Positions 12,305 through 60,215 of a stretch of 64,000 nucleotides of DNA are shown in pieces. Under the pieces are notes generated by a model. The model had not been told where the DNA came from. It worked only from the letters and a program-made list of their open reading frames with translations, and did not search any database. The stretch spans positions 2,270-66,269 of the forward strand of contig CAWGUE010000031.1 of assembly GCA_963825595.1 (NCBI GenBank). The letters are read 5' to 3'. How positions within the stretch are numbered: the first letter of the stretch is position 1; each line of letters opens with the position of its first letter. The stretch comes from an uncultured delta proteobacterium. GTDB taxonomy: Bacteria; Desulfobacterota; Desulfobacteria; Desulfobacterales; SG8-13. A program made the position numbers and the translations under genes.

Positions 12305-12718
12305 ATGAAGAAATTAGTCGGAAAGCTTATCACTGCCATCCTGATATTTTCGGTCGTCAGCGGATGTGCCACTTCGCCGTTTGCCGACGATGCGGTTCCG
12401 CGGATGAGCAAGGAAGAACTCAAACAGCGGATTGGTGCACCGGACATCATCATTCTGGACACCCGCACGGGCAGCGATTGGAACGACAGCGATCGAATTA
12501 TATTAGGGGCAGTGCGCGCCGAACCCAAGGAATTCAGCAAGTGGGCCGAAGCATACCCCAAGGATGCCACCATCGTATTGTACTGAGCGTGACATGACGA
12601 ATACACCAGTGCCAGGATGGCACGGCAACTCATCGGCAGAGGATACAATAAAGTGTACGCGCTTAAAGGCGGTTGGATCGAATGGCAAGGTTCCGGTTAC
12701 CCGATGGAGAAGAAATGA
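12305..12718 (+). CDS. rhodanese-like seleno-lipoprotein with U-x-U motif (Sec94, Sec96; 137 aa)
   Basis: lipobox VSGC. Reading through TGA 12584 and TGA 12590 gives IVLY-U-A-U-HDEYTSARMARQLIGRGYNKVYALKGGWIEW, a complete rhodanese fold. Hairpin GTGCCA-GGA-TGGCAC at 12609-12623. Confidence 0.85.
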
Positions 12719-13376
12719 TCGTAAAAATGGGTATGGGCGAGGGGCAGAGATCGTTCATTTCCAATAGATCTTTCTCGCTGCAGTACCCCTTGGAAGCATA
12801 ACCCTTCTCCAGGCCTTTTCGAGTGATCACCTGGATATGCGTGTGGTGGAACCAATTGCCGTTTTCGTGAAAATCACCGATCTCGGCAAAGGGTACACCG
12901 GCTGGGAACGTTTGACCGACTGCCGGCAGGTGGTCCCTGCACAGATGACCGTAGAAGCTGTAAAACGCCTCGAAATTGGGGCTCTCGTGCTTCAAGAGTA
13001 CGAAGCCGCCATAGTTACCTTCCCCGCTCTCGTAGCCGCTCCCTGAAACGGTGGCATCAAGCGGCGCATGCAGCGGTGTGCCCAAGCCCACGATGACATC
13101 CAGGCCCAGGTGGATGAATCGTTTTTCGGCCACCATCTGCGGGCAGTCCCCGAGCAGGGTGTCGCGTCGCTCGAAATAGGGCGAAACCCCCCATCGGTAT
13201 TCGGATCCCATCTTCTCCTCAAGGACCCGTTGGAATCCTTTCTGGTCCCGCACATTCTTCCCTTTGAGCAGTGGACTGTTGGTTGAGAGATCCGCGATAA
13301 AGGGATCTCCCTTCAGTCCCGGAAAGACAGGCCGGTGTTGGATCTTCTCACTGTAAAGCAAAAAAGGATAGTACAT
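12663..13376 (-). CDS. M23/peptidoglycan DD-metalloendopeptidase-like domain protein
   Basis: HLGLD, GTPLHAPLD, YGHL, ENGNWFHHTHIQ; no signal peptide. Confidence 0.75.
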   Translation of the reverse strand: MYYPFLLYSEKIQHRPVFPGLKGDPFIADLSTNSPLLKGKNVRDQKGFQRVLEEKMGSEYRWGVSPYFERRDTLLGDCPQMVAEKRFIHLGLDVIVGLGTPLHAPLDATVSGSGYESGEGNYGGFVLLKHESPNFEAFYSFYGHLCRDHLPAVGQTFPAGVPFAEIGDFHENGNWFHHTHIQVITRKGLEKGYASKGYCSEKDLLEMNDLCPSPIPIFTIISSPSGNRNLAIRSNRL

Positions 13377-13388
13377 GCGGCCTCCGGG

Positions 13389-15851
13389 TCAGGATAACGC
13401 AAAATCGGTGGTTTTCAGCAATCCGGCAACCGCAACGATCGGCTTGCCGTCATCACCTTCTTTGATATCATCGGGCCAGGTGAAATCCGGTGATAGGCCC
13501 CTGAAGTAGGAGAGCTCGTAGGGAAGCAGTTTTATCGACAGATTCTCACCTTCACCGATAATGGTGGATGACAAACCGAAATCAACCTCACCCAGGACCG
13601 TGCGGATAATGTAGCGCGGCACCTCCCTGCCGCTGCCTTCCCGGCGGACCCGTGTGGCGATGTCCACCACATCGTAAAGCGCCACCGGGTTGCGCTTATT
13701 CCAATGGTCTTGCACGGGAAGTCCGGCCACGTACAGGTGGTGAAACTCGATGCCGGCCTTCCGGCAGCTGTAGGCGAGGTGGTGAATGGCCTCCGGCGTG
13801 TCGTTGATTCTGCCCAGCAGGGGCGTGTTGTTATAAACGGTGATGCCCTTGTTGTTCAGCAGGCGCGTCAACCGGGTGTGCGCCGGCCGAAACTCGTCCG
13901 CAACCAGAAATTGGGTTTCAATTTCCAGCCGTTGCGGATTGACGATGGTCAGTTTGTTCAGGCTGGCCAGCTTGTCGATCACCACCGGCGAGTAGCGATC
14001 CGGTTCGTAGTTGAATTTCAGGCTGCGCAACCGGACGGCATTGACATGCGGGATGTCTTCCAGGGCCCTGATGATTTTACTGATTTGGAACAGAGATTCG
14101 GTGGCGTCTATCTCGGAAACGATCACCACGTCGGTAATGCGTTCGTCACCCTGGATGTAATTTAGATCCGCTTCGGTGCCATCGGCATCGATCTCGACCC
14201 GGGTTTCGTGGACGCGTGACATCGTCGAAGATCCGGTATCGACAAGCGATGGCGCAATTTTTTCATTTTTCAGTACCATTGGCAGAATCGCATCGGTACT
14301 TTCTGTCTTCATTGTCACGCCGTCGCCAAGTCTAGACGGCCGCGCTCCCAGAAAGAGCGATTGATCCCCGATCTGCGCCATGTACTGAATGTCGATGGTC
14401 CCCTCCTCGTTGACCCGGATATTTTCCAACTTGTTGGCAACAGGTGCAAATTGCTTGAAATAGTCCGGTGTGTAAGGACTTCGGATCCACATGAAGTTGT
14501 CGTTTCCCGCCACCGGCTCCACGGCCCAGCCGCTGGTGTGCCAGTCCATCTTGCCGATGGGGGTGGCCGTGCAGATCCTCGGAATAACGCGGTCAGACAG
14601 GTGCGCCCGCAGGTATTTTCCTGCGGCCAGACCTTTTGATATCGGCGACCAGTAGACGCTGTTTCCATGGATGGGACTGCAGGGGATGTAAATATAATGG
14701 AGTTCGGCCCCGGCGCCACGCAGCAGACTGAACAGCCGGACCAGTTCAGGGCCTTCATCGTTGCAGTTATTTAAAAACGGTGTCTGAACGTATACTGCAA
14801 TGCCGCTTTTCACCAGATCGGTGATAATCATCAGGCTCTGGGGGGAAATCTCGTCGGGATGGATGAAGTGGGTGGCCACCTCCATGCGTTTGCCGCGTTC
14901 CTGAAGCGCGAGGTTTTTGCGCTTCAGATAATTCAACAGTTTGGCATCCTCGGACAGGAACATATGCGGGTAGTAGGCAATGGAACGGGTGGCCAGGCGC
15001 AGGGTCTGGACATGTTCGATCTCCATGAGGCCGTCGATGGCGCTGGCCATGTTTGCCCGGTTCATGAAGGGATCGCCCCCGGTGATCACGATCTCCTTGA
15101 TGGAAGGCGAATTTTTAACATGCGCCACCGCCTTTTTGACTTCCGCAGGGGTGGGGTTGGTTTCGTTGCGAGATTCCTTGTGCTTGCGGAAGCAGAACCG
15201 ACAGTACACCGGGCAGCTCATGTTCAGCAGAAAGATGACACGGTTCTGGTACATCTGCTCCAGCAGCCCCTGGTGGAACTGGCCGATCCAGGTGTTGGTG
15301 TGTCCGGCGACATCCAGTTCCTGGGTGAACGGTAAATATTGATAGGTGACATCTCGAGATACGCGCATCTGGCGGATGGTATGCATGGAGAGCCTCACCG
15401 GATAGGTGTCGATCACCTTTTGCATATCCCCCCGCTTCGCTTCCGCAAATGAGATGTTGGCGAACTTTTCCAGCTGATCGGTCGTCTTGATGGAAATGAA
15501 TGCATTGCCGGGAAGAACAATCTCCAGAATCGCCATCAGCATCAGGTGGGGCAGTTCAATACCGTTAATACAGATCTTTTGGGTGCCGTTTGCTTTTCCC
15601 AGCAGCATGAGCAGTTCAGAGAAAAAACCCTTTGGATTGTCGCTATGCCCGCAAGCGTCGAGCAGTCTTGAAAGTTTTGTTCGCCCGTCACCGGTCTGTA
15701 TAATGTCAAAAAACGTTTTGCCGACAAGTGACATCACGCCCATATGGTCGAGGAAACCGGTGAGGGCGGCAACCAAATGTGCGAGGGGCACCTGGTTCTC
15801 TTCGCCTGAATTTTCGTAAACAATCTTTAAAAATGGTTCGTCTCGCGACAT
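13389..15851 (-). CDS. KamA (lysine 2,3-aminomutase)-like radical SAM protein with a duplicated degenerate second domain
   Basis: CPVYCRFCFRK, ITGGDP, THFIHPDE, QTPFL..CND, PIGK; second half repeats NTPLL..IND/LYVA/VPRY without the CxxxCxxC. Confidence 0.85.
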   Translation of the reverse strand: MSRDEPFLKIVYENSGEENQVPLAHLVAALTGFLDHMGVMSLVGKTFFDIIQTGDGRTKLSRLLDACGHSDNPKGFFSELLMLLGKANGTQKICINGIELPHLMLMAILEIVLPGNAFISIKTTDQLEKFANISFAEAKRGDMQKVIDTYPVRLSMHTIRQMRVSRDVTYQYLPFTQELDVAGHTNTWIGQFHQGLLEQMYQNRVIFLLNMSCPVYCRFCFRKHKESRNETNPTPAEVKKAVAHVKNSPSIKEIVITGGDPFMNRANMASAIDGLMEIEHVQTLRLATRSIAYYPHMFLSEDAKLLNYLKRKNLALQERGKRMEVATHFIHPDEISPQSLMIITDLVKSGIAVYVQTPFLNNCNDEGPELVRLFSLLRGAGAELHYIYIPCSPIHGNSVYWSPISKGLAAGKYLRAHLSDRVIPRICTATPIGKMDWHTSGWAVEPVAGNDNFMWIRSPYTPDYFKQFAPVANKLENIRVNEEGTIDIQYMAQIGDQSLFLGARPSRLGDGVTMKTESTDAILPMVLKNEKIAPSLVDTGSSTMSRVHETRVEIDADGTEADLNYIQGDERITDVVIVSEIDATESLFQISKIIRALEDIPHVNAVRLRSLKFNYEPDRYSPVVIDKLASLNKLTIVNPQRLEIETQFLVADEFRPAHTRLTRLLNNKGITVYNNTPLLGRINDTPEAIHHLAYSCRKAGIEFHHLYVAGLPVQDHWNKRNPVALYDVVDIATRVRREGSGREVPRYIIRTVLGEVDFGLSSTIIGEGENLSIKLLPYELSYFRGLSPDFTWPDDIKEGDDGKPIVAVAGLLKTTDFALS

Positions 15852-15970
15852 TCCCCCACCTCATACGTTGGATGAAAATTAGGAATTGACATTCATTCCG
15901 GGATCTGGTTTTAACTATAATAGTAATGCTGTTCACATTATAGTACGATACTAAATCGCCCCTCCACAGA

Positions 15971-16765
15971 ATGTCAAAAGGAAAATACTATTTCTCAAAA
16001 TCGCTGGAAAAAGGGCTGAAGATTTTAGCCCTTTTCAACCGAGAAACCCCTGTGACGACCCAGAGTGAAATCGCCAGGAGGCTGGGTCTCAACATGACCT
16101 CAACCTATCGTTACATCAACACACTGGTGGAATTGGGTTACCTGGAAAAAGACGCAAAAACAAAAGAAATCCGACCTTCCGCTCTTTGCCTTCTGTTCTG
16201 CGCCAATTTGATGCGAGCCACCGATCATCTGAAGATGATCAAGGAGATCGTGGACCGGATCCACAGTAAAAATAATATCAGCATCGATGTGGCCTTTGTG
16301 GTCGATGACACGATAGTGCATATCTATCATCGGGAGGCGGAGGAGACCCTCACCTACAGCCTGCCGGATTTCTCGAGAAATTGCCTGCACAACACGGCAT
16401 TGGGTAAAGCGTATCTTTCCAGTCTTCCGAACGGACTTATCGCTGACAAAATCGAGACGATGCCCCTTACCGCCAGGACTTCAAAGACCATCGTCGACAA
16501 AGATGCGCTCTTGGCGGAGATACAAGTAACCAAGGCGCGTGAGTTCTCAATGTCCGAGGAAGAGTATCTCCCCGGCTTGCTGGCCATCGGCGCACCCTTG
16601 ATTGATCCCATTAGCGGAAAGGGCGTCGGTGCGGTATCATTTGATTTTTCGGTGCTGCAGCAGAGTGCAAAGGAAATCGTGGTGAGGTACAGCGAAATGA
16701 TCAGGGAAACGGCCAGGTCACTGTCCGAGATCTTGATAGCGGGAAATGGCCGCAGGTCGTCATAA
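15971..16765 (+). CDS. IclR family transcriptional regulator
   Basis: SLEKGLKIL HTH, TALGKAYL, EEYLPGLLAIGAP. Confidence 0.9.
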   Translation: MSKGKYYFSKSLEKGLKILALFNRETPVTTQSEIARRLGLNMTSTYRYINTLVELGYLEKDAKTKEIRPSALCLLFCANLMRATDHLKMIKEIVDRIHSKNNISIDVAFVVDDTIVHIYHREAEETLTYSLPDFSRNCLHNTALGKAYLSSLPNGLIADKIETMPLTARTSKTIVDKDALLAEIQVTKAREFSMSEEEYLPGLLAIGAPLIDPISGKGVGAVSFDFSVLQQSAKEIVVRYSEMIRETARSLSEILIAGNGRRSS

Positions 16766-16846
16766 TCCGACGCGAACATTGTAGTTTAATTCGATTAGGC
16801 TCTGAATGGTATCACTTTACACGCTTAATTCTTCAAGGCGACACCC

Positions 16847-17713
16847 ATGAAATCGGTCCGCTGGAAACCATGGGCACTTCTGGCACCATCCATGAGTGCT
16901 GTTTTTTTACTTCTGGTCATACCGGTTTGCTTCGTCGTTGTATACAGCTTCTGGCTGCGTGCCCCCAGCGGAGCAGATATTCCTGCGTTCCAGTTTGGTA
17001 ATTACGCCAAGTTCTTCGAAGACTTCTTTTATCCCAAAATTCTTATTCGTACGATTCGCATTTCCTTTGAGACGGTCATTCTCTGCGTTGTCATGGGCTA
17101 TGTCCCGGCCTATTTTTTCTACCGCAGCGAAAGCCGCTATAAACAGGCTTTTCTTCTGCTCATCATGCTGCCGTTTTGGGTCAGCTTCATCATCCGCACC
17201 ATGAGCTGGATCAACATCATGGGGGATTCGGGACTGATCAACCATTTCCTGTTGAAGATCGGGCTGATTCACGCGCCTATATCCATGTTATACAACGAGT
17301 TCACCGTGCTCATGGGATTGATCATGTATCTGCTGCCGTTCATGGTTCTGAATATCTACGTCAGCCTGGAAGGCATCGACAAGAGCCTTCTCGAAGCCGC
17401 ACGCTGCATGGGCTGCACCGAATGGCAGGCGTTTCGGGAAGTAACGCTCCCCTTGAGCCTTCCCGGGGTCAGCGCCGGCTGTTTGCTGGTCTTCGTGCTG
17501 ACGGCCGGCACCTATCTACCGCCCATGATATTGGGCGGTCCGGGCAACGACATGATCGCCAATCTGATTTTCAAGCGGGTGATCGGCACGCTGGACTGGC
17601 CGTTCGGCTCGGCCATCAGCGTGATCCTTATATCCCTTTTGTTCGTGATCGTATGGACCTACAACCGATACCTGGGAATCAACCAGATCTTCAAAAGCTT
17701 TCAGGGTAATTGA
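16847..17713 (+). CDS. ABC transporter permease, PotB-like
   Basis: LPFWVSFIIRT, EAA motif LLEAARCMG, DWPFGSA. Confidence 0.9.
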   Translation: MKSVRWKPWALLAPSMSAVFLLLVIPVCFVVVYSFWLRAPSGADIPAFQFGNYAKFFEDFFYPKILIRTIRISFETVILCVVMGYVPAYFFYRSESRYKQAFLLLIMLPFWVSFIIRTMSWINIMGDSGLINHFLLKIGLIHAPISMLYNEFTVLMGLIMYLLPFMVLNIYVSLEGIDKSLLEAARCMGCTEWQAFREVTLPLSLPGVSAGCLLVFVLTAGTYLPPMILGGPGNDMIANLIFKRVIGTLDWPFGSAISVILISLLFVIVWTYNRYLGINQIFKSFQGN

Positions 17714-17716
17714 CCC

Positions 17717-18514
17717 ATGAAACAATTTTCACCGGGATGGACGTTAATGAAAATTTACACGGTTCTCGTCTACGTGTTCATGTTCACCCCCATCGTCGTC
17801 GTTATCGTGCTGGCATTCAACCCCAAGCAATTCGGCATTTTTCCCATGGAGGGCATCAGCTTGCGGTGGTTTATCAAACTGGCTCAAAATGAATCGATCA
17901 TCGACGCTTTTAAAAACTCGCTCGTTTTGGGCTCGCTGACCGCGGTCATAACCACCGCCATCGGCATCCTTGCCGCCCTGGCATTCATCCGTTTCGAATT
18001 TCCCGGCAAAAACACCCTCAACACCCTGCTGCTTTCACCGATCATGATTCCGGAAGTGGTTTTGGGTGTCGCGCTGCTTCTTTTTTTGCGGTTTCTTCAG
18101 CAGCCCAAGAGCTTTGCCCTGTTGCTGATCGGCCACGTAGTGTTGACCCTGCCCTATGTCCTTTTGATCGTCCAGGCCCGTCTGGTGGGCATTAAAAAAG
18201 AGTACGAAGAGGCGGCCAAATCGCTGGGCGCCAATGCATTTCAAACCTTCAGGGAAGTCACCTTCCCGCTTTTGCTGCCGGCCATACTGGCCGGTGCCCT
18301 TTTTTCCTTTACCATTTCTTTTGATGACATCACGGCAACGCTTTTCTGGGCCACGGCGCAGAACCAAACCGTTCCGGTCAAAATTTTCAGCATGCTGAGA
18401 AATTCGATCAGCCCGGAAATCAACGCCCTGGGCGCCGTCATGATCGTGCTGACCGTGGCCACCCCTCTGCTGGCCGGTTACCTGTCCCGCAAGTTTTCAA
18501 AGGTAAAAGCATAA
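17717..18514 (+). CDS. ABC transporter permease, PotC-like
   Basis: SLRWF, PEVVLG, EEAAKSLGA, FTISFDD, SPEINAL. Confidence 0.9.
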   Translation: MKQFSPGWTLMKIYTVLVYVFMFTPIVVVIVLAFNPKQFGIFPMEGISLRWFIKLAQNESIIDAFKNSLVLGSLTAVITTAIGILAALAFIRFEFPGKNTLNTLLLSPIMIPEVVLGVALLLFLRFLQQPKSFALLLIGHVVLTLPYVLLIVQARLVGIKKEYEEAAKSLGANAFQTFREVTFPLLLPAILAGALFSFTISFDDITATLFWATAQNQTVPVKIFSMLRNSISPEINALGAVMIVLTVATPLLAGYLSRKFSKVKA

Positions 18515-18544
18515 CCATAAAACCATCAACCGGAAGGAGAAACA

Positions 18545-19708
18545 ATGGCCATCGTAACCAAAGAAAAACTGGATCGGGTGTATGACGCGTATAAAAACGG
18601 CAAGCTCAGCCGGCGTCACTTTCTCAAATACCTCGGCCTTGCCGGCGCCTCCATCGGGTTGGTGGGATCACCCTTCGCAAACGTCGTAAGGGACGCTTGG
18701 GCCGCCAAGTCCATCCGGTTCGACGGTTGGGGTGGATCGGTTTCCGAAGCATTTCGTGAACACGCATTCAAGCCTTTTACCAAAGCGACGGGTATCGAGG
18801 TCATCGATGGTGAATTCGGTGACATGAACTCCTATCTGACGCGCGTCAAAGCCTCATATCCGCCGGGTGGAGAGTTCAATATCGCCCATCTTAGTGCTGT
18901 TTTCGACTATGCCCGTTATGTGGAATTGGGTTTTTCATCGGTTTTGGATGAATCGAAAATTCCCAATCTCAAAAATGTCATGCAGGCCATGATCAAACCG
19001 CTGCGGGAGATAACCAAAGGCACCCTGTCGGCTGTTCCCTACGATCTGGGGCAGACCGGCATCGCCTATAACACCAAGCATGTCAGCAAAGAGACGGCCG
19101 AGAAGCTCGGTGCTTCCCTGTTGTGGGACAAGGCCTTGAAAGGCAAACTGGGCAGTTGGGGCGGCGACTTCAGGACCAACATGTGGTACGCGGCGCTACA
19201 CACCGGTCAGAGCCCCAACAATATGACCGACCTCGAGGCCATCTGGGCGGCATTGCGTGAACAGCGCGGCCTGATGAAAAAATATTGGAGTTCCGGCGCC
19301 GAACTGATGAGCCTGCTGGCCAACGAGGAGATCTTTGCCACCGTGGCCTGGTCCGGACGGGTGGCCGCGCTTCAGCAGGAAGGTCATCCCATTGGCTACC
19401 TCTCTCCCAAGGGCACCTACTCCTGGATGGAATATCTCTTCGTCCTGAAAGGCACCGATCTGGAAGTCGCCCAGCAACTGCTCAATTTCATGCTGGAACC
19501 CAGCGCGGCCATCGCTGTGGCCGAGGGACAGAATTATCCGCCCAGCCTTGATCCGTCCAAAGTGGAATTGACCGAGAAGATCAAAAAGATGCCGGCCTTC
19601 GACCCCACCGGTAAACTGGACGGGTACCTTTTTGCGAATCCTTCCTACTGGAACGCCAACCAGGTGGATTGGACCGAAAAATGGGATCGCATCAAAGCCG
19701 GCAGTTAG
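18545..19708 (+). CDS. ABC transporter substrate-binding protein, PotD/PotF-like, Tat-exported
   Basis: SRRHFLK Tat motif, GWGG, PF.KATGIEV, GIAYN, WSGR. Confidence 0.85.
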   Translation: MAIVTKEKLDRVYDAYKNGKLSRRHFLKYLGLAGASIGLVGSPFANVVRDAWAAKSIRFDGWGGSVSEAFREHAFKPFTKATGIEVIDGEFGDMNSYLTRVKASYPPGGEFNIAHLSAVFDYARYVELGFSSVLDESKIPNLKNVMQAMIKPLREITKGTLSAVPYDLGQTGIAYNTKHVSKETAEKLGASLLWDKALKGKLGSWGGDFRTNMWYAALHTGQSPNNMTDLEAIWAALREQRGLMKKYWSSGAELMSLLANEEIFATVAWSGRVAALQQEGHPIGYLSPKGTYSWMEYLFVLKGTDLEVAQQLLNFMLEPSAAIAVAEGQNYPPSLDPSKVELTEKIKKMPAFDPTGKLDGYLFANPSYWNANQVDWTEKWDRIKAGS

Positions 19709-19716
19709 TGCCGATC

Positions 19717-19834
19717 TTTAAATTTCCGTGTCCCCCCGCGCAGAATAAAGCATGAGGCTCGGGTTAATACCGAAATGCCACTCTAAGCCTTTGCTGGTTC
19801 CCCCTTTGACAAAGGGGGACACGGGGATTTTAAA
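19717..19834. repeat. intercistronic palindromic (REP-like) element
   Basis: CCGTGTCCCCC ... GGGGGACACGG outer inverted repeat overlapping TCCCCCTTTG-A-CAAAGGGGGA; a partial related motif lies near 29184-29200. Confidence 0.5.
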
Positions 19835-19901
19835 AGCGGCACCCATTGGAATAAATTTCTGAGATTCGCTTTAAGCATTTCAAAACGGGGAGACAGGGCC
19901 A

Positions 19902-21002
19902 TTGGCGACCGGTAAAAAACAACCCATAGTGCAGTTCCGGGGCATATTGAAGCGGTTCGGAAACGTTGTCGCCGTGGAGAAAATGGATTTTGATATCGAA
20001 GAGGGCAGCCTGGTGACGCTGCTGGGCCCTTCCGGATGCGGCAAGACCACCTTGCTGCGCATGGTGGCCGGACTGGAGAAACCCACCGAGGGCGATATTT
20101 ACATCAAAGGGGTTCGAATCAACGACACACCGATCCACAAGCGAAACCTGGGCATGATTTTTCAGAACTATGCCCTGTTCCCCCATAAAACCATTTATGA
20201 CAATGTGGCCTTCGGACTTAAATACCGGGATGTGTCCAAGGAAGCGATCAAGGAAAAGGTGAAGCGGGCCCTGGAGATGGTTCGCCTACCCGGTGTGGAA
20301 AACCGTATGCCGAGCCAGCTATCCGGCGGGCAGCAGCAGCGCATCGCCATGGCGCGGGCGATCGTGATCGAACCGGACGTGCTGCTGATGGACGAGCCCC
20401 TTTCCGCCCTTGACGAAAACCTGAGGGAGGAAATGCGGCGCGAGGTGGACAACCTCCAGCAGATGCTCGGCGTCACCACGATCTTTGTCACCCATGATCA
20501 GCGTGAAGCATTGAGCATGTCGGACAAGATCCTCGTCATGGAAAATGGCCGCAAGCAACAGGAGGGCAGTCCCGAGGCGGTCTACAATGAGCCGGCCAAT
20601 CATTTTGTGGCCGATTTTCTGGGCCACTCCAATTTCATTCCGGGCGATGTCGTAGAGGTCGATAACAACCGTGTCAACGTCAAGATTGAAACCGGCGATA
20701 TCCTCATTGCGGAGAACAAAGGCGGATTCTCGATCGGTGACCCGGTGGAGATAATCGTCCGCGCGCAGCGGTTCGATGCCTTTTCCATGGATGCATACAA
20801 ACCGGTGGAGGGAATGAACCACTTCACGGGCCGCATCAAAGACCGCAGTTACATGGGCGGAGAGGTCAGTTACTTCGTTGAACTGGGTACCGACCGTGAA
20901 ATTCATGTTATCAGTATGATGAGAACACGGATCTACGACATCGGCGAGGAGGTCAGCATGAGGGTATCGCCACACCACTGCCATCTGATTCCCAGGGAGT
21001 GA
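19902..21002 (+). CDS. ABC transporter ATP-binding protein, PotA-like
   Basis: GPSGCGKTT, LSGGQQQR, LMDEP, VTHDQ, TOBE tail. Confidence 0.92.
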   Translation: MATGKKQPIVQFRGILKRFGNVVAVEKMDFDIEEGSLVTLLGPSGCGKTTLLRMVAGLEKPTEGDIYIKGVRINDTPIHKRNLGMIFQNYALFPHKTIYDNVAFGLKYRDVSKEAIKEKVKRALEMVRLPGVENRMPSQLSGGQQQRIAMARAIVIEPDVLLMDEPLSALDENLREEMRREVDNLQQMLGVTTIFVTHDQREALSMSDKILVMENGRKQQEGSPEAVYNEPANHFVADFLGHSNFIPGDVVEVDNNRVNVKIETGDILIAENKGGFSIGDPVEIIVRAQRFDAFSMDAYKPVEGMNHFTGRIKDRSYMGGEVSYFVELGTDREIHVISMMRTRIYDIGEEVSMRVSPHHCHLIPRE

Positions 21003-21148
21003 GCTGGCAAACCGTTTTTGCCGCAATCCTGTCGACCTGAAACCTGAAGGCAGACCCTGTCGTTTTCAGGTTTTGTTTTTTTGTGCGGTTGTGGGCCGAC
21101 CTGAACGTGATGATGCTATCCAATTGACCAAGGGAAGGGGGTACGCGC

Positions 21149-22186
21149 ATGCTCAAACTGGATCGGATCGAAAGCGGATTTTTCGATCGCTATCCGGATC
21201 GAATCGTTACCATCGATTCTCATACCCAGGGGGAACCGACCCGATTGCTGATTAACGGCGTGGGCCCCCTGCCCGGCAACACAATGAAAGACAAACGAGA
21301 CGCTTTCGAATCCCATTACGATCATGTCCGCATGCTGTTGACCCGCGAACCCAGGGGGCATCGGGGCATCATGGCGGCCGTGGTGACCGAACCGGTCAGT
21401 CCGGAAGGAAAGTTCGGGCTGTTTTACATGGATGCCCGGCGCTACCCTTATTTGTGCGGCCACGCCACCATCGGTGCGGTGACCACTCTGATCGAAGCCG
21501 GGGCCCTGGACGCCGAAGACGGCGACACGGTTATCACGGTAGACACCCCGTCCGGACCGCTGGATGCCCATACCCGGATTCGATACGGCCGTGTGGCATC
21601 CGTGGCCATTGACATGGTGCCGTCATTCGTTTTTGATACCGGTCGTGAACTTGAGATCGCCGGATTCGGCAGGGTTCCCGTAGACCTGGTCTGCGTGGGC
21701 GGGTTTTTCGCCATGGTGTCGGCCCGGTCGGTCGGCATCGACCTGGTCCCGGAAAACAGCCACCGCTTGATTCCATTGGGGATGGAAGTCATCGCGGCGG
21801 CCAATCAGGCCTTTGGCGTTTACCATCCAGCGCGGCCGGAGGTGAACACGGTGGATGTGACCGAATTCTATGATGAAGACCCGGAAACAGGAACCGGCAA
21901 AAGCGTGGTGATCTACGGCGAATCCCACATGGACCGTTCACCATGCGGTACCGGCACCACAGCCAAGATGACGCTGCTCCACCACAGGGGAAAGCTCGCT
22001 CCCGGTCAGTTCTACAAAAATGCCAGCCCATTGGGCACGGCGTTCGAGGGACAAATCGTTAAAACATTGTCCATCGGAGAATTTGCCGGCATCGTAGGCC
22101 AGGTTCGGGGAAACGCCCAGATTACCGGGTATCATCAATTTGTTCTGGACGCCAATGACCCCTTTCCCAAAGGATTTTTATTGTGA
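21149..22186 (+). CDS. proline racemase / hydroxyproline epimerase family protein
   Basis: DSHTQGEPTR, EPRGH, LCGHATIG and DRSPCGTGT (both catalytic Cys present). Confidence 0.9.
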   Translation: MLKLDRIESGFFDRYPDRIVTIDSHTQGEPTRLLINGVGPLPGNTMKDKRDAFESHYDHVRMLLTREPRGHRGIMAAVVTEPVSPEGKFGLFYMDARRYPYLCGHATIGAVTTLIEAGALDAEDGDTVITVDTPSGPLDAHTRIRYGRVASVAIDMVPSFVFDTGRELEIAGFGRVPVDLVCVGGFFAMVSARSVGIDLVPENSHRLIPLGMEVIAAANQAFGVYHPARPEVNTVDVTEFYDEDPETGTGKSVVIYGESHMDRSPCGTGTTAKMTLLHHRGKLAPGQFYKNASPLGTAFEGQIVKTLSIGEFAGIVGQVRGNAQITGYHQFVLDANDPFPKGFLL

Positions 22187-23811: not shown

Positions 23812-23824
23812 TGATCGTGGAATA

Positions 23825-26289: not shown

Positions 26290-26309
26290 CATCCATTCAT
26301 ATCATGAAA

Positions 26310-47880: not shown

Positions 47881-47977
47881 TTCGTGCCATCCACGAATGT
47901 TCGCCGGCGCTTTTCAGCGTCCAGCGTAAAAATGGCCTTTTGGGATTGATCACGAAGTCTATAGGAGTCACAAATAG

Positions 47978-48427
47978 ATGAAAGAGCTTGAAAGTTTGAT
48001 AGATCGGATGGACCCGGAAGCGGCGATGGCCGCGCTGGCCGGCATCGTCAGAAAACTCTTTCCTCAAGTCGGCGAATCGTCACAGCTGAACTTCGTTTAC
48101 GCCCTCACCGGCGGCGCCGAGGAAGGCAGTGCTGCCGACCTTGTGCATCTCTGACTGGCCGAGTGCATGGACGAAGGTGTCGATCCAACGAAAATGTGCC
48201 AGAGTCTGGTAAACAAAGTCGCCCAATCGAAACAGCTTCAGGCGGTTACGGACCCTGAAATCCTTGTCTTGTTCGAGGACTGGCTGGATGAAATCGAAAA
48301 TGAAGTGGTGTCATCGGTAAAGAAAACCGGCTCTGACAATCACGCCCAAATTGCCGAACAGACGGGGCTCTCCCGATCGGGTGCAAATTTCATCATTACC
48401 AAGTTGAAACGCGAAGGACGCCTTTAA
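47978..48427 (+). CDS. tsoA: TsoA-like selenoprotein, copy 2 (TGA 48152)
   Basis: same frame and VHL-U-LAEC motif as copy 1. Confidence 0.8.
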
Positions 48428-50171: not shown

Positions 50172-50240
50172 CACCGGGCAACTAAACAATAACCCGATGA
50201 ACCGAATACTGCCCGCAACCCTTACCTAAGGAGACAGCCA

Positions 50241-50558
50241 ATGCTGACCGTGCACTTTTTTCTCAACGAACCCAACGGCAAACCGTGAAAGCATTTTAAA
50301 AAGATGATGCCCGGTCTGGGCAATACATATGACATTCGAATCGAAACGACATCCAAGCCCAAAGCGGATTACATGACGGACGCGTACTTCGAGCTCGACC
50401 TGCCCGTGGCCCCGGCCGTCATGGTGGGCGATGAGATCGTGGTGGAGGGGGCGGATGTGGCCCAGTATGAAATAGAGGCGGCTATCTGCAGGCATTTGAA
50501 TTTGCCGCTCCCGGAAAAGGAAGAAAAGGGTTTTTTACGAAAAATATTCAAAGAATGA
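50241..50558 (+). CDS. tsoC: TsoC-like selenoprotein, copy 2 (TGA 50286)
   Basis: same NEPNGKP-U motif and GGTCT hairpin. Confidence 0.85.
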
Positions 50559-50708
50559 AATGCCCGGATTGTCATTATCTATCTAGTGCCCATCCACGAA
50601 TATGAGATGGCACCGTTGAGTGTCCCTTAATTTTGGGATGGGAGAGGTCATTAGCGACTTCAGCGCGCAACCCATGCATAAGGCAGCCTAAGGAAAGGAT
50701 TCACGGGA

Positions 50709-51011
50709 ATGGATCGTCGAAGGGTTATGGTTGAGATTGTTGCGAAAAAAAAAGGGTGTATGATGTGCGATCTTGCGATTGGCATTCTCGAGGAAATCAC
50801 TCCTGAATTCGATGCTGGGATTCTACAGTGGCAGGTCGTCGATGTCGGTTCGCGTGAAGGGGTTGCACGCCATGCCGAACTTGGTTCCATTTGCGGGCGT
50901 ATGCCGGCTGTACCTTCGATTGTGATTAACGAAGCCATCGCCTTTGACAACATACCAGACATGGCGTCCTTGACAGTGGCGGTGCGAAAGGCAAGCCACT
51001 CGGATGCTTGA
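50709..51011 (+). CDS. small thioredoxin-fold protein CMMC, copy 2
   Basis: differs from 46326-46628 only near the C-terminus. Confidence 0.75.
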   Translation: MDRRRVMVEIVAKKKGCMMCDLAIGILEEITPEFDAGILQWQVVDVGSREGVARHAELGSICGRMPAVPSIVINEAIAFDNIPDMASLTVAVRKASHSDA

Positions 51012-51178
51012 ATTTTAACACTGAATAAGGGATACGATGAGCGACCGTCTATCCAAGATCGATGAACACATATAGAGAAATCTTTAAAACAGATCAATTT
51101 CGATACTGTGACTGTCGCGGACAGGAGATCGACTAAGCGGGAACCGGGCAGGATGACGATATCCGCGCCGGTCTAATG

Positions 51179-51229
51179 GTGGTTGTCAAAAAAACGTTCC
51201 GTTATTCGAACGTTTTTTTCTACAACCAC
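51179..51229. terminator. long hairpin between convergent units
   Basis: GTGGTTGTCAAAAAAACGTTC-N7-GAACGTTTTTTTCTACAACCAC. Confidence 0.5.
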
Positions 51230-52179: not shown

Positions 52180-52743
52180 TCACTGAAGTTGCATAGTGGT
52201 TATGCAGGTGTTGCTACCGTCTGTGGTCGTTATTATGCCAGCAACTGAACGGCTGAGACCCTCGATGGTTAGATTGATCGTACGATCTCTTGGCAACCAA
52301 AGTTCCATGAATCCGTTTTTCAAAGTAGAGACAGGCATATCAGTAATAACAGTGCCTGATTGATCGACGGCTTTGACATTGAATTTCGTCTGAGTCAATT
52401 CCCCCTGACAGGAGGACATGAAGTGAACGCCTCATTTGTGGGTCTTCCTGATAAAGGGAGCGACGGCAATCATGACCTTTTCTTCAGGAAGTGCAATTTT
52501 TTTGGCATTACCGCTTTCAAACTGAAAAACAACTTCTTGGGTGGTGATATGAGTTTTCACGGGCTGCTTTTCCCAGTGCCACTGGTTAGCAAGGGCCAGT
52601 GCTTGGTACGCGTCTATCCCATCAAGTTGCTTTATCAGCTTGGATTCCACCATTGAATGAGAGGCGGTAGACAAAATAACCAATGAGAGTGCCGTCAAAG
52701 GCACTATGATAAACAGCTTGTTTATAGAACATCTTATGGTCAT
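52180..52743 (-). CDS. cueP: CueP family periplasmic copper-binding protein containing Sec (Sec104; 187 aa)
   Basis: ORFs 52432-52743 and 52180-52419 share a frame; AVAPFIRKTHK-U-GVHFMSSCQGE..NGFMELWLPR..SNTCITT matches the CueP pattern TH.C..H...GCQGE. Confidence 0.85.
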
Positions 52744-54947: not shown

Positions 54948-56288
54948 ATGCAAATCATCGCAAAAATAATTTTGTTGCTCATGGTTATCGGTTTTTCAAC
55001 GCCGGTATCGGCAGTCAGTGCACAAAAGTTAAAGCTAACAGCAGAACAATCATCACATCAATTTCCGTTTTTCGACGCGCAAACCCCGGTCTGGTCGTAC
55101 AATGGTTCGATACCCGGCCCTACCATTCGCGGCCAGGTGGGACAAACCATCGAAGTTGAATTCATCAACAATCTGGACGAGCCTTCCAGCATCCATTGGC
55201 ACGGATTGATTGTCGATAACGCCATGGACGGTGTCCCAGGCGTCACCCAGGACCCGGTAAAAGCCGGAGATCGCTTTTCCTATCGGCTTAAACTCCGGGA
55301 TGCCGGAACATACTGGTATCACCCCCACCTCAATGGCAGCGAGCAGTTGGGGCGCGGACTTAAAGGTGCGCTTATCGTGGAACCGAAGGAAAAACTTCCC
55401 TGGTCTCAGGACATTGTCTGGCTTATCGACGACTGGCTCCTTGAAAAAAGCGGAGATATCTTTCCAAGCTTCAACACCGGCCGCGACCTGATGCACGACG
55501 GCCGCTGGGGAAATGTCGTCACTATCAACGGTAAATATCAACCCAAGGTTTCGGTAACTCCGGGTGAACGCATCCGCATCCGCCTCATAAATGGTGCTAA
55601 TGCACGGGTCCTTATGCCCCTCTTTAACGGAATCGATGCCCATGTAATCGCAGTGGATGGAAAACCGGTTTCACAAATTTTCAAATACAACGGCTTCGAT
55701 CTCGCCCCAGGCAACCGAATCGATCTGGACATCATCATACCGACCGAAGCGCAGGGCCACACCTACGTTGTTGAAGATGGGTTCACACGAAACAAGTTTC
55801 CGTTGGCATCAATAGAGGTAAAAGAGGTTCAACCGGTCCAGACACCGGTATTCGATCCAACGACAGCTGAAGATTTTTTACCGGCAAATGTTTTTTCAAA
55901 GGTCACACCTTCAAAAACGTGGGATCTCGATGCCATCCGAGGAGGAAAATTCGGCATCGGATGGGCAATGAATCGTCTGCTGTGGCCCAATAGCGACACG
56001 GCCGACATTCCGATGGGACAACCACAAAAAATTGTGTTCAGAAACAATAGTTCGCGGCTGCATCCGATGCACATCCACGGAACATTCTTCAGGGTGTTGG
56101 AACGCAACGGAAAACCTGAAGCAGAGCCATTTACGAGGGATACCGTTCTGCTGAGTGCCCGGGAATCTGTTGTCATCGGGCTTGTGCCGACTGAACCAGG
56201 CATTTGGATGTCGCATTGCCACATACAATCTCACGCGGAAGCGGGTATGATGACTACCGTCAATGTGGCCCCCCAACGCTCAGATTAA
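54948..56288 (+). CDS. multicopper oxidase
   Basis: signal peptide, IHWHG, WYHPH, HPMHIHG, HCHIQSHAEAGM. Confidence 0.92.
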   Translation: MQIIAKIILLLMVIGFSTPVSAVSAQKLKLTAEQSSHQFPFFDAQTPVWSYNGSIPGPTIRGQVGQTIEVEFINNLDEPSSIHWHGLIVDNAMDGVPGVTQDPVKAGDRFSYRLKLRDAGTYWYHPHLNGSEQLGRGLKGALIVEPKEKLPWSQDIVWLIDDWLLEKSGDIFPSFNTGRDLMHDGRWGNVVTINGKYQPKVSVTPGERIRIRLINGANARVLMPLFNGIDAHVIAVDGKPVSQIFKYNGFDLAPGNRIDLDIIIPTEAQGHTYVVEDGFTRNKFPLASIEVKEVQPVQTPVFDPTTAEDFLPANVFSKVTPSKTWDLDAIRGGKFGIGWAMNRLLWPNSDTADIPMGQPQKIVFRNNSSRLHPMHIHGTFFRVLERNGKPEAEPFTRDTVLLSARESVVIGLVPTEPGIWMSHCHIQSHAEAGMMTTVNVAPQRSD

Positions 56289-58632: not shown

Positions 58633-59112
58633 ATGGTGACAGACGATTTGCAATACCCTCAGATTCTGCAGCACCGGACATGGTACGGGGTCAACGCAAC
58701 CGTAACCCTTGCGTCTAAATTTATTCATAAGACGGGTTTCGGGAATATTTTGATTCCTCATCCAGCCGCGGTGAACTGGCTTCTCAGGCGGGGACTGAAA
58801 TTGAAGAACGGGGTTTCCCTGTGCATCCAACATGAGGTGGGGCATCTACAGACCGTGCCTTTAGCGCTGTTATATGTAGGCATACTGCTGTCGATGGCTA
58901 TTGGGGAAGGTAGAATATCCTGGTTCAAGATGCTGTTCTTGGTGGTGTCTGCGCAAGCCGTCTGGGAGATAATGTCCGAGTTTTTCACTATGTTCAGCGA
59001 TATTGAAAGTTACCGCGCCTGTTACGCCGGTGTCACAAAACTCCCAAGGATCATTTTTTGGTTGACGTCCGTCTTGGCGGCCCTCACCGGTGCGCTCATC
59101 CTCTTGAATTGA
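58633..59112 (+). CDS. hypothetical membrane protein with HExxH
   Basis: QHEVGHLQ followed by TM helices and a WE..SE motif; start uncertain. Confidence 0.6.
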   Translation: MVTDDLQYPQILQHRTWYGVNATVTLASKFIHKTGFGNILIPHPAAVNWLLRRGLKLKNGVSLCIQHEVGHLQTVPLALLYVGILLSMAIGEGRISWFKMLFLVVSAQAVWEIMSEFFTMFSDIESYRACYAGVTKLPRIIFWLTSVLAALTGALILLN

Positions 59113-59336
59113 TAACTTTGATTTGACGATGATTTTTCTCACTGTATGGTTTTAGCAAGAAATCTAATAAACATTGATTATTCTCCGTTCGTTCATATAC
59201 TTTCCATTCTTAAAGAAAGGCAGCATCGGTTGGTGCGGCGGGCTCGATAGGCACCACACCCCTCAACAAACCAAGCCGCCGGTCGATGGAGAATTCTCGC
59301 ATTAATAGAATGCATCGGCCATCGAACTTGGCAAAT

Positions 59337-60215
59337 ATGACTATGAGGTCGTATCAATTGAGAAAAATAAACAGATTTGAAGCGCCTGTAGCAATAAGAA
59401 GACTCATTCATCAGGGAATTGCCCGCCTGACGACCTATTGGCCGTACCTCTCCAATAAGCTGATAGAAGCATTTAAGCCACTGGCACTCGACAACATCCC
59501 ATGGGCACAGGTGACCAAACCGCTGAATGAATCCAAGATCGCCGTCGTCACCACTGCCGGTTTACACCACCGAAACCAGGCAGCATTTAACATGGCCGAT
59601 TCCCAAGGCGACCCGACGTATCGCATTCTCGATGCCGCCAGCATAGAAAACGACTACACGATCACCCACGATTACTACGATCACCGCGACGCCGACAAAG
59701 ATATCAATATCGTGTTTCCCATTACCCGCCTCAAAGAGATGGCCGCAGCCGGCTGCATCGGAGCCCTGGCCAAACGGCATATCAGCTTCATGGGCCATAT
59801 TGACGGCAACCATGTCAATACGTTGAAAAACCAGACAGCTCCCAAAGTGGCGGAACTCCTCGAAAAAGATGCGGCGGATGTGGTTCTGCTGACGCCAGCC
59901 TGAGGTATATGCAATCAATCCGTTGGATTGATTCAACGAGTCATCGAAGCCGTCGGCATCGCCACCATCAGCATATCCATCGTGCGAAAATACACCGAAG
60001 CCATCAAACCACCGCGATCGATCTTCTTGCGTTGGCCGTTTGGGCATCCGTTAGGAGAAGCCCACAACATCCCGCAACAGGCCGCCGTACTTGGAAAGGC
60101 CTTCGAAGCCCTCTATCAGATCGACAGGCCGGGTGAGATTATCGATGTGAACTGGCGCTGGCGCAGGAAATCGTATCCTCCGGCCCCTTGGATGGTTGAT
60201 CCGCCGAGTTGTTGA
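59337..60215 (+). CDS. GrdB/PrdB-like (glycine/betaine/proline reductase selenoprotein B family) selenoprotein, U-x-x-C
   Basis: KIAVVTTAG, GDPTYR, H.YYDH, D.NIVFP, VLLTPA-U-GI-C-NQSVGLIQR.IE..GIAT, PPRS...WPFGHPLG via TGA 59901; 9-bp hairpin at 59913-59933; start uncertain (59286 or 59337). Confidence 0.9.

Follow-up and report, generated by a model that had tools for sequence, protein, structure and literature searches.

A dense and composite cluster of predicted selenoprotein genes around a duplicated tso operon in a Desulfobacterales-like genome

The stretch of DNA analysed here (64,000 nucleotides, hereafter the window) carries, within 47.9 kb, 14 in-frame TGA codons in 11 genes, all of them located in the sequence, 10 distinct and 4 duplicates. 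The genes belong to eight families: an LYUAU rhodanese, a WUPGC redoxin, an IscA/HesB selenoprotein, TsoA, TsoB, TsoC, CueP and a PrdB/GrdB-like protein. On the evidence of sequence, all 14 TGAs are read as selenocysteine (Sec), with selenium incorporation predicted. The density of Sec genes is real and above chance. It is probable, in our judgement, that these genes accreted in a plastic, horizontally exchanged region around a copper/metal-stress neighbourhood, the UGAs being recoded within the standard genetic code. The first-pass annotation had counted eight distinct Sec genes and 10 distinct UGAs in 48 kb, and each of these TGAs, together with the four duplicates, was verified in frame. 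The features are as follows.

8275-9792: multicopper oxidase
12305-12718, + strand: lipoprotein-type rhodanese of the LYCAU family, here LYUAU (NF041203, 170.8 bits, cut-off 115); Sec codons 12584-12586 and 12590-12592; predicted SECIS hairpin about 12609-12623; stop TGA at 12716
25690-26289 (start may be 25762), + strand: thioredoxin-fold redoxin (AhpC/TSA) with WUPGC motif (Pfam AhpC-TSA over residues 41-176, spanning U82); Sec codon 25933-25935, hairpin downstream
35782-36096, + strand: IscA/HesB-family selenoprotein, GGUGPP (NF038090, 87.3 bits, cut-off 85); Sec codon 35878-35880, hairpin GGCTC-TGGAT-GAGCC
41486-42367, - strand: cbiK (Pfam CbiK, 240.6 bits)
42828-43016, - strand: cobalamin riboswitch upstream of cbiK (RF00174, 109.9 bits)
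43142-43498, + strand: ArsR-family regulator directly upstream of tsoA (Pfam HTH_5, 41.2 bits)
43596-44045, + strand: tsoA, LULAxC-motif selenoprotein with C-terminal winged helix (NF045695, 211.3 bits, cut-off 170); Sec codon 43770-43772
44046-45788, + strand: tsoB, fusion of rhodanese, DsbD transmembrane domain and thioredoxin, YUAGLAU (NF045694, 933.5 bits, cut-off 805); Sec codons 44415-44417 and 44430-44432
45858-46175, + strand: tsoC, NEPxGxxU-motif selenoprotein (NF045708, 144.5 bits, cut-off 45); Sec codon 45903-45905
47210-47396: second cobalamin riboswitch (RF00174, 106 bits)
Upstream of tsoA2: arsR2, frameshifted through 1-bp insertions at 47682 and 47762
47978-50558, + strand: second tandem tso copy, comprising the next three genes
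47978-48427, + strand: tsoA2, TGA at 48152
48428 to about 50171, + strand: tsoB2, TGAs at 48797 and 48812; a 1-bp insertion near 49758 breaks the frame
50241-50558, + strand: tsoC2, TGA at 50286
52180-52743, - strand: CueP-family periplasmic metal-binding protein with Sec at residue 104, THKUGVHFMSSCQGE (PF21172, 108.7 bits; NF038094, 133.9 bits, cut-off 60); Sec codon 52432-52434; predicted SECIS hairpin 52400-52416
54948-56288, + strand: multicopper oxidase near CueP (Pfam Cu-oxidase_3, Cu-oxidase, Cu-oxidase_2)
59286-60215, + strand: PrdB/GrdB-like selenoprotein, TPAUGICNQS (Pfam GRDB, 45.7 bits); Sec codon 59901-59903
61832-63427: multicopper oxidase

The read-through ORFs of all 14 TGAs matched protein families across the TGA in Pfam and NCBIfam, and six of the eight families matched selenoprotein-type NCBIfam models over cut-off, with scores spanning the TGA. 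In relatives, TGA or a Cys codon was seen at the equivalent position for CueP, the rhodanese, the PrdB-like protein, TsoA and the redoxin; the sites of the HesB-like protein, TsoB and TsoC are backed by paralogues and family models. As had been proposed, the Sec codons lie mostly at Cys sites of redox or metal motifs. Downstream of each of the 14 TGAs, starting 14-34 nt on, is a hairpin with a G-containing loop, assigned as SECIS by a simple permissive rule of a kind that random sequence often satisfies. The distance rule for bacterial SECIS elements is 16-37 nt. Conservation of the hairpin was demonstrated for two families, CueP and the rhodanese. Other TGAs in the window (17711, 13391, 27167, 38778, 21125, 4604, 46173 and 50556) are ordinary gene ends or gene junctions.

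For CueP, the codon is TGA in 11 of 11 loci of the order, and a wider search with a single protein as query gave Cys codons at 74 of 80 loci and TGA at 6. The Sec form occurs in 10 of 201 genomes of the order, and every instance seen came from a delta-proteobacterial or Desulfobacterales-type genome. Its 17-nt hairpin is invariant in all 11 loci, synonymous sites included, with proteins just 42-73% identical. Residues 83-186 align to Salmonella CueP (4GQZ), the Sec standing opposite a Cys that we take to be copper-binding and three conserved Cys positions being retained; the protein has an N-terminal hydrophobic leader. The CueP copper chaperone equivalog NF038095 was not reached (94.2 bits against a cut-off of 195). 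A Sec form of this periplasmic copper chaperone may be new. Among its database homologues, 35 of 45 cover just 51-55% of the protein, and the single such row that was aligned stops just before the TGA. It had been predicted that standard annotation would report such genes as fragments or pseudogenes. Generic callers do fragment them, as the 35 of 45 indicate, but six of the eight families are already named by selenoprotein-type NCBI models, so that modern PGAP would not label all of them as pseudogenes.

In the rhodanese, the second site is TGA in 21 of 21 aligned relatives, while the first is TGA in 5 and Cys in 16 of the 21 aligned loci, the five coming from several families of the order. 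Its hairpin, GTGCC-N5-GGCAC, is conserved with one covarying (compensatory) pair, and the protein carries a lipobox. This double-Sec UAU variant may also be new. The redoxin codon is TGA in six relatives and TGT (Cys) in one; the protein has an N-terminal hydrophobic leader, and it was not found in congener G175. A paralogue of the IscA/HesB protein on contig C8, 48.5% identical over residues 1-103, has TGA at the equivalent place. The PrdB-like gene is present in 63 of 201 genomes of the order, with TGA in 14 of 14 fetched relatives. It missed both the PrdB equivalog TIGR04483 (166.9 bits against 300) and the subfamily TIGR01918 (52.3 against 65.45), and PrdA, GrdA and PrdC had no match among about 50 window ORFs scanned. 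Since it falls below these cut-offs, has no PrdA, GrdA or PrdC match in those ORFs and lies among metal genes, it would represent a distinct subfamily, widespread in the order. The statement that none of the genes encodes a classical Sec enzyme holds for formate dehydrogenase and hydrogenase, but the PrdB-like protein is distantly related to the D-proline/glycine reductase B selenoproteins.

TsoA, TsoB and TsoC all score over curated cut-offs and are adjacent and co-oriented (43596-46175, + strand). All 10 fetched relatives have TGA at the tsoA Sec codon, and TsoB has the Pfam domains Rhodanese, DsbD_TM and Thioredoxin_7. The two tso copies are 96.98% identical over 3943 bp, with 104 mismatches and 11 indels, and tblastn splits tsoB2 between two frames. 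With tsoB2 and arsR2 frameshifted, one or two of the eleven genes may therefore be dead, or the lesions may be assembly indel errors; judged by its broken frames, the second copy is apparently decaying. Public runs held at most 38% of the sampled words of 47000-51200 per run. The 1-bp insertions seen in arsR2 are missing from contigs of sediment metagenomes, although these contigs may stem from copy 1, and cover is absent at the tsoB2 frameshift. Contigs from RNA libraries are no sign of transcription. A single-sequence AlphaFold model of TsoC had a mean pLDDT of 50.1, too poor for a fold search.

The surroundings of these genes were then compared with those in related genomes. The Sec genes had been described as interleaved with Cu, Zn, Mn and Co genes. 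This is so for Cu, Co and Mn in the right half, which contains CbiK, ArsR, CueP, three multicopper oxidases, MntP and Metal_resist proteins. By contrast, amino-acid, radical-SAM, polyamine-type ABC, 2-oxoacid:ferredoxin and Fe-S assembly genes, and not metal genes, occupy the left half (13-32 kb), and no zinc gene was seen. Relative to G175, window positions 12.7-26.3 kb (13.6 kb) and about 28.9-37.3 kb (about 8 kb) are insertions or replacements, and these two blocks carry the redoxin and HesB-like Sec genes. A second, diverged copy of the right half lies on contig C30, where the copies of tsoB and the PrdB-like gene have frame-breaking indels. The two diverged copies, the high identity of the C30 copy to G175 (90-99.7%, against 77-85% elsewhere) and the G175 blocks give a pattern of presence, absence and identity at odds with the flanking genome, as in a horizontally exchanged genomic island. 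Taken together, these comparisons indicate that the region is composite and plastic.

Another possibility is that all eleven genes belong to a single integrated and co-regulated envelope system, built on Sec and handling metal stress and thiol redox, whose parts cluster as co-workers. At least four products would be exported or membrane-bound, given the rhodanese lipobox, the CueP and redoxin leaders and the DsbD domain of TsoB, and the right half is coherent in theme. Moreover, in G191 the gene for the LYCAU rhodanese directly neighbours the PrdB-like gene, in G200 the two are separated by 3 kb, and G175 holds CopZ-N, CueP, TsoB, TsoC and the PrdB-like gene within 22 kb. Against this, the genes are spread over both strands and at least six units, with a KamA-type aminomutase, a polyamine-type ABC transporter, a 2-oxoacid:ferredoxin oxidoreductase and a sigma-54 activator in between. 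Elsewhere in the order, most genomes have these families on separate contigs or far apart (megabases apart in the single-contig G065 and G085), and two of the Sec genes sit in the blocks that the congener is without. A single integrated system thus seems improbable, and accretion in a plastic region is preferred.

We compared the density of Sec genes inside and outside the window by a scan of the 5.27 Mb genome. The scan gave 195 candidates; 40 outside the window were chosen by eye, and Pfam or NCBIfam scans covered 36 of these (all but L046, L059, L061 and L063). Twelve of the 36 were unsupported there: L024, L034, L043, L050, L051, L052, L054, L057 and L058 were without a family match, L056 and L060 were each two adjacent genes, and in L062 the TGA lay beyond the matched domain. 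At least 32 Sec genes are supported outside the window, 7 of them by motif or paralogy alone and one unscanned. The thresholds were tuned so that all 14 window TGAs pass, and SelD was missed; because of this fitting the outside count is a lower bound, and the enrichment factor is accordingly uncertain. These 47.9 kb thus hold 11 of at least 43 Sec genes, about a quarter, in 0.9% of the genome, a density roughly 20-40 times background. The Poisson probability of such enrichment is 6e-13 for 11 genes and 1e-7 when seven transcription units are counted instead; with the outside count taken twice as large, it is 5e-6. Set against the rest of the genome, as the first-pass annotation had called for, the region is therefore beyond chance, with 11 genes in 47.9 kb against at least 32 outside. 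Two further TGA-rich clusters were found.

Contig C21, 49.7-101.4 kb: second cluster, 6 Sec genes, including FdhA, two HdrA, two GlpC-like genes and a CoA-disulfide-reductase-like gene
Contig C30, 192.4-213.9 kb: third cluster, 5 Sec genes

If the window contig, C31, were mis-binned, this comparison would be void. The density would then be a binning artefact, with C31 coming from another population and the C30 copy being the same locus from a co-assembled relative. The reported contamination is 2.33%, and positions 182-226.8 kb of C30 are 90-99.7% identical to G175, as compared with 65-93% for the C31 copy and 77-85% between the two genomes elsewhere. However, the tetranucleotide correlation of C31 (r = 0.977) lies within the spread of values for the other contigs, synteny with G175 runs through the left 40 kb of C31 at 77-85% identity, as in a flanking part of C30, and the high-identity block shares its contig with sequence of ordinary identity. 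Eleven Sec genes in 48 kb would also be dense for any genome, the maxima given in the BSepDB paper being 46-63 selenoproteins per genome. We regard such an artefact as very unlikely.

The genome encodes selA (607.9 bits), selB (375.7 bits) and selD (375.7 bits), all over curated cut-offs, and selD itself contains one in-frame TGA (Sec-containing). The first-pass annotation had staked the Sec reading on selAB and selC; selA and selB are present, and selC was not found in the 36 contigs by RF01852 over the whole genome, by ARAGORN at default and lowered thresholds, by Rfam on 17 candidate or flanking stretches, or by two cloverleaf scans. The best RF01852 match (46.2 bits) proved to be a tRNA-Ser. 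The RF01852 search on relatives gave selC at 74.7-76.5 bits in five of five. In congener G130, selC is followed directly by sequence that matches contig C36 of the present genome (G000) up to base 42694 of 42697, so that selC would sit just beyond the end of C36; it is most likely missing through a contig break.

It could be argued from the absence of selC in the assembly, and from the frame-breaking indels in tsoB2, arsR2 and the C30 copies, that these TGAs are normal stop codons, lesions of pseudogenes or errors of assembly, and that the genes are mere fragments. This is scarcely credible: for each family, 10 to 21 independent genomes have TGA at the site, with coding conserved beyond it, the sites align to Cys in Cys-form homologues, and selenoprotein-specific models exceed their cut-offs across the TGA. 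Genome-wide reading of TGA as Trp or Gly, which some public CueP-homologue gene calls would suggest by showing W at the Sec site (as a TGA=Trp table would give), has practically no likelihood left, because TGA is the commonest stop of long ORFs and ends 1098 of 2433 ORFs of at least 300 codons (45%), as in the standard code, the tRNA-Trp anticodon is CCA, ARAGORN at default found no tRNA with anticodon UCA in the genome, the sites align to Cys and not to Trp or Gly, and selA, selB and selD are present.

The host would be a selenoprotein-rich, Desulfobacterales-like anaerobe, akin to sediment sulfate reducers, with the standard genetic code, in which SelD would supply selenophosphate, SelA would convert Ser-tRNA(Sec) and SelB would read the hairpin 15-35 nt downstream of each UGA. 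The eleven genes would form six or seven separate transcription units and not one machine. The putative core is the arsR-tsoA-tsoB-tsoC unit, already catalogued, of which there are two tandem copies, the second apparently decaying. From domain order and Cys homologues we infer the roles of TsoB and Sec-CueP. The DsbD-like membrane conduit of TsoB probably relays cytoplasmic reducing power via the C-terminal thioredoxin domain to an outward-facing rhodanese, whose two selenols may act on a metal(loid) or a sulfur/selenium substrate. Beside this core stand Sec-CueP, with Sec for a conserved Cys, the multicopper oxidases, MntP and the PrdB-like selenoprotein. The rhodanese, redoxin and HesB-like genes lie leftward amid unrelated metabolic genes, the latter two having presumably arrived in the blocks that the congener lacks. 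The earlier claim that this organism has shifted its toolkit to Sec is too specific, as Sec forms are common to many families of the order.

A bolder idea, which we put forward tentatively and hold to be doubtful, is that an exchangeable, selenolate-based periplasmic copper/metal kit (Sec-CueP, the double-Sec TsoB conduit and the UAU lipoprotein rhodanese) travels among related sediment sulfate reducers. Sec-CueP would then be an undescribed family with Se as a ligand of Cu(I), and the genes would cluster as a metal-resistance module that depends on selenium and can be selected for. Most of the families are already catalogued, and the region is a rich example of the recently described tso-centred pattern, not a new kind of system. 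If Sec-CueP is truly unreported, the selenoproteins gain a copper chaperone, and selenium use would be connected with the handling of copper in anoxic sediments; if not, what has been published on selenoprotein neighbourhoods centred on tso is confirmed and left unchanged. In either case the window is a compact test bed for why bacteria use selenium over sulfur at metal- or redox-active sites (three of the eight families have Cys counterparts demonstrated in this analysis), and it shows how generic gene callers lose the selenoproteome, most public CueP-like homologues of this type being fragments of about half length.

The closest known system is Tso, a three selenoprotein operon to which unrelated selenoprotein genes lie adjacent (Haft and Tolstoy 2025, mSystems 10:e0141724, as cited by the 2026 review PMC13188914). 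The window shares its gene order, tsoA-tsoB-tsoC, and its motifs (LULAxC, U-x4-U and NEPxGxxU), TsoB being tabulated in that review as UxxxxU with 2 Sec. It likewise has unrelated selenoprotein genes nearby, namely Sec-CueP and the PrdB-like, LYUAU rhodanese, redoxin and HesB-like genes. It differs in that the operon is tandemly duplicated with a second copy apparently in decay, and in that TsoX and TsoY had no match in the genome to NF045809 or NF047643; the negative for NF047643 is weak, because that search matched none of the control genomes either. Matches to the TsoX motif within the window occur by chance only, inside riboswitches. In the paralogous copy on C30 and in the congener's copy, tsoB and tsoC are present and tsoA was not found.

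The rhodanese meets the equivalog NF041203 of rhodanese-like protein form 3, for which the table in PMC13188914 gives a CxU motif and one Sec. Like that form, it has Sec at the U of LYCAU, but the motif Cys is also TGA, so that two Sec lie two residues apart with one hairpin. CueP of the window belongs to the same family as Salmonella CueP (4GQZ; PF21172; NF038094) and keeps all three Cys positions; unlike it, the first of the three is Sec, with a conserved hairpin of its own, and NF038095 is missed. The PrdB-like protein shares with PrdB/GrdB (TIGR04483, PF07355) the UxxC motif with Sec and homology over the C-terminal two thirds, but it scores under both cut-offs and sits among metal genes, and none of the scanned ORFs matched PrdA, GrdA or PrdC. 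Finally, frhA-frhD-hdrA-glpC selenoprotein gene clusters are known in Deltaproteobacteria (PMC13188914, section 9), and the C21 cluster of this genome is one of them. The window resembles these in grouping several Sec genes; but whereas they encode energy-metabolism enzymes of one complex, the genes of the window encode small redox and metal proteins in separate units.

All in-frame TGAs listed by the first-pass annotation were present and in frame, and its count of 10 distinct UGAs plus 4 duplicates was matched. Once TGA is read as selenocysteine (Sec, U), eleven genes are open in the window, on both strands and in at least six units; three of them form the three selenoprotein operon tsoA-tsoB-tsoC (tso), which also occurs as a second copy:

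12305-12718, rhodanese, 137 aa, U94 and U96
25690-26289, redoxin, 199 aa, U82
35782-36096, IscA/HesB-like protein, 104 aa, U33
43596-44045, tsoA, U59
44046-45788, tsoB, U124 and U129
45858-46175, tsoC, U16
47978-50558, second copy of tsoA, tsoB and tsoC
52180-52743, minus strand, CueP-family protein, U104
59286-60215, PrdB/GrdB-like protein, U206

Every one of these TGAs is spanned by Pfam domains, and six of the eight families scored above curated NCBIfam cut-offs: the rhodanese (rhodanese_LYCAU, NF041203; 170.8 bits, cut-off 115), the HesB-like protein (IscA_HesB_Se, NF038090; 87.3 bits, cut-off 85), TsoA (NF045695; 211.3 bits, cut-off 170), TsoB (NF045694; 933.5 bits, cut-off 805), TsoC (NF045708; 144.5 bits, cut-off 45) and CueP (NF038094; 133.9 bits, cut-off 60). 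The redoxin matched only general AhpC/TSA and thioredoxin-like models, and the PrdB-like protein is distantly related to D-proline reductase PrdB, scoring 166.9 bits where the cut-off is 300. A relaxed scan gave no further convincing Sec sites in the window; the remaining TGA read-throughs were rejected as gene ends or junctions between adjacent genes. A thioredoxin gene (36223-36546, plus strand; Pfam 62.8 bits) shares its frame with the HesB-like gene, with two TGAs between them; its active site is WCAPG, with Gly at the position where the second Cys is expected.

A reassigned genetic code was ruled out, since 1098 of the 2433 ORFs that reach 300 codons end in TGA and the tRNA-Trp genes carry anticodon CCA. 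The genome contains selA, selB and selD, all above cut-offs, the last with its own in-frame TGA. No search method used found selC in this assembly, while the same search found it in five of five relatives at 74.7-76.5 bits. In the congener G130, the DNA from 90 bp downstream of selC matches contig C36 of our genome up to base 42694 of 42697, so that this flank (about 41285-42697 on C36) reaches within 3 bases of the contig end. Judged from this synteny, selC most probably lies in an assembly gap just beyond that end.

Five window proteins served as queries against 201 genomes of the same order, and the loci retrieved were aligned. CueP occurs in 10 genomes, at 11 loci, each with TGA at the equivalent codon. 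The rhodanese was found in 47 genomes, with an in-frame TGA in 51 of the 55 listed matches and TGA at the second site in all 21 aligned rows. TGA was likewise found in 14 of 14 aligned loci of the PrdB-like protein (63 genomes) and in 10 of 10 of TsoA (28 genomes); the aligned codon of the redoxin (8 genomes) is TGA in six cases and TGT in one. Among the best 80 CueP loci of a scan with one genome per species, 6 have TGA and 74 a Cys codon; of the twelve rows listed, five have TGA, under record titles of delta proteobacterium or Desulfobacterales, and the next seven (Spirochaetes, Bacillales) have Cys. The CueP Sec of the window aligns with a Cys both in the Salmonella CueP of known structure (4GQZ) and in Firmicute CuePs.

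A hairpin lies at SECIS distance 3' of each TGA. In CueP the hairpin (TCCTCCT-GTC-AGGGGGA) does not vary among 11 sequences with protein identities of just 42-73%, which indicates that synonymous sites are frozen there while flanking codons drift. In the rhodanese, 21 rows retain the hairpin GTGCC-N5-GGCAC, with a single compensatory pair. Its distance is 24 nt to the second UGA and 30 nt to the first; one element could therefore serve both. These comparisons identify the UGAs of the window as Sec codons. Recoding of UGA by SelB at local hairpins is the established mechanism and agrees with all data here.

The density of Sec genes in the window proved real when every genomic TGA was scanned, with a dicodon coding score built here, for coding signal on both sides and a hairpin; 195 of 5660 loose candidates passed. 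Forty outside candidates were picked by eye and 36 of these scanned against Pfam or NCBIfam. Seventeen had a family match across the TGA, e.g. FdhA, HdrA, NiFe hydrogenase large subunit, VhuD, Prx/BCP, DsbA-like, DUF3179, DUF1573, DfsP, HUIPC protein, CopZ-N-terminal proteins, URO-D family and CoA-disulfide-reductase-like. For seven more, a motif or a paralogue gave the support (two HdrA, three GlpC-like with UGH, a YHS protein and an ArsM-like protein), and 12 were without support. With one unscanned HdrA paralogue, six paralogues of window proteins and SelD also counted, there are at least 32 Sec genes outside against 11 inside (total at least 43), the outside figure being a lower bound because the scan thresholds had been adjusted to the sites of the window itself. 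Thus 47.9 kb, or 0.9% of 5.27 Mb, holds about one quarter of the Sec genes counted, at a density ratio of about 37, or about 19 with the outside count doubled. Poisson P lies between 6e-13 and 5e-6 according to the treatment of duplicates and operons. The total comes near the 46-63 that the BSepDB paper gives as its top-ten range.

Odd in-frame TGA runs at the start of contig C19 (160-190, minus strand; TQCUTGUGPAFULPAPUF) and at C25:58006 (plus strand; repeat GLULAGLULAGLULAG) may be repeats or non-coding sequence. Classical NiFeSe hydrogenases carry Sec at a C-terminal site, whereas the TGA of the NiFe hydrogenase large subunit at C28:24112-25083 (minus strand, locus L044) falls in the N-terminal RxCGxC motif (CGVU). 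The URO-D family protein (methyltransferase-like) at C8:43910-44668 (minus strand, locus L028) has its TGA within the Pfam match (TFAPGUDMPY); as the word uroporphyrinogen is absent from the available text of the 2026 review PMC13188914, it may be another unlisted Sec family.

The right half of the window (41-64 kb) forms a metal neighbourhood. Here cbiK follows a cobalamin riboswitch and an ArsR-family regulator precedes tsoA; CueP, an RseC/MucC-like protein, MntP, multicopper oxidases (a third at 8.3-9.8 kb) and Metal_resist-family proteins (a second at 7.45-8.06 kb) are also present. At 7450-9924 (plus strand) the Metal_resist-family gene is followed by the multicopper oxidase, whose end and last domain seem to lie in different frames; either a frameshift or an indel in the assembly could explain this. 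The gene content of the left half is unlike that of the right. It includes a 2-oxoacid:ferredoxin oxidoreductase, a sigma-54 activator and NifU-like, Mrp/NUBPL-like and NifB/X-like Fe-S proteins. A 13.6-kb block (12700-26300) is an insertion relative to the congener G175, with the redoxin Sec gene at its end; its genes for an 820-aa KamA-type radical SAM protein, an IclR regulator, a PotABCD-like transporter, a proline-racemase-family protein, an amidohydrolase and an SDR-radical-SAM fusion look like an amino-acid or polyamine catabolic module.

Other parts of the window are also rearranged. About 28.9-37.3 kb, with the HesB-like Sec gene inside, replaces about 3 kb of G175, and in G175 an HdrA-like Sec gene, absent from the window, adjoins the rhodanese. 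A tandem repeat of 97% identity takes in the cbiK 3' end, the riboswitch, arsR and tsoABC. Its second unit shows 104 substitutions and 11 indels. The reading frame of arsR2 is disrupted by two one-base insertions and that of tsoB2 by one; tsoA2 and tsoC2 are still open with their TGAs kept. Of the two riboswitches (both minus strand), that at 42828-43016 precedes intact cbiK and that at 47210-47396 only a truncated remnant (46277-47014), a product of the duplication.

The right half (41500-64000) has a second, rearranged copy, 67-98% identical, at the end of contig C30 (182000-226843), with Sec forms of CueP, TsoB, TsoC and the PrdB-like protein and a CopZ-N-terminal selenoprotein; tsoB and the PrdB-like gene are split across frames there. 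This copy is collinear with G175 contig C12 at 90-99.7% identity, compared with 77-85% for ordinary orthologous sequence of the two genomes, which points to recent exchange. By synteny with G175 the end of the window's contig (C31) abuts the start of C5, where another CopZ-N-terminal Sec gene lies 8 kb further on.

In other genomes of the order the families are mostly scattered. Exceptions are G147, with three of them within 51 kb, and G191 and G200, from two other families of the order, where LYCAU-type rhodanese and PrdB-like genes are adjacent or 3 kb apart (G191 C6:115701-117187; G200 C4:299864-303872). This hints that the two may be functionally linked.

TsoB follows the plan of DsbD, with a two-Cys transmembrane domain and a C-terminal thioredoxin domain (WCAPC), but has at its N-terminus a rhodanese domain whose two Sec lie five residues apart. 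It probably serves as a conduit maintaining an outward-facing diselenol in the reduced state, and the ArsR-family regulator directly upstream could confer a metal(loid) response. TsoA, with a LULAxC site and a winged helix, may be a sensor or partner. In Sec-CueP the Sec occupies the first of three conserved Cys positions, which we take to be the copper-binding Cys96, Cys104 and Cys172 of Salmonella CueP, a numbering that agrees with how the residues are spaced in the alignment to 4GQZ.

The available text of PMC13188914 lists TsoA, TsoB (UxxxxU, 2 Sec), TsoC, rhodanese form 3 (NF041203, CxU), the HesB-like protein, D-proline reductase and thiol-disulfide-isomerase-like proteins as selenoprotein families. 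According to the same review, Haft and Tolstoy (2025) had earlier reported the tso operon with unrelated selenoprotein genes beside it. The review has no mention of CueP, the word copper is absent from the BSepDB text available, the NCBIfam CueP name has no '(seleno)' tag, and a full-text literature search for CueP with selenocysteine or selenoprotein returned nothing relevant. Rhodanese form 3 is a single-Sec protein there, whereas that of the window is a two-Sec UAU form. As far as these literature and database searches reach, Sec-CueP and the UAU rhodanese may be unreported. Of the earlier interpretation, the Sec sites, the cell-envelope character of many products and the metal theme of the right half hold. 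An organism-specific conversion of a toolkit to Sec does not: the region is instead a composite, mobile accretion around the known tso operon, and an unusually rich example of its kind.
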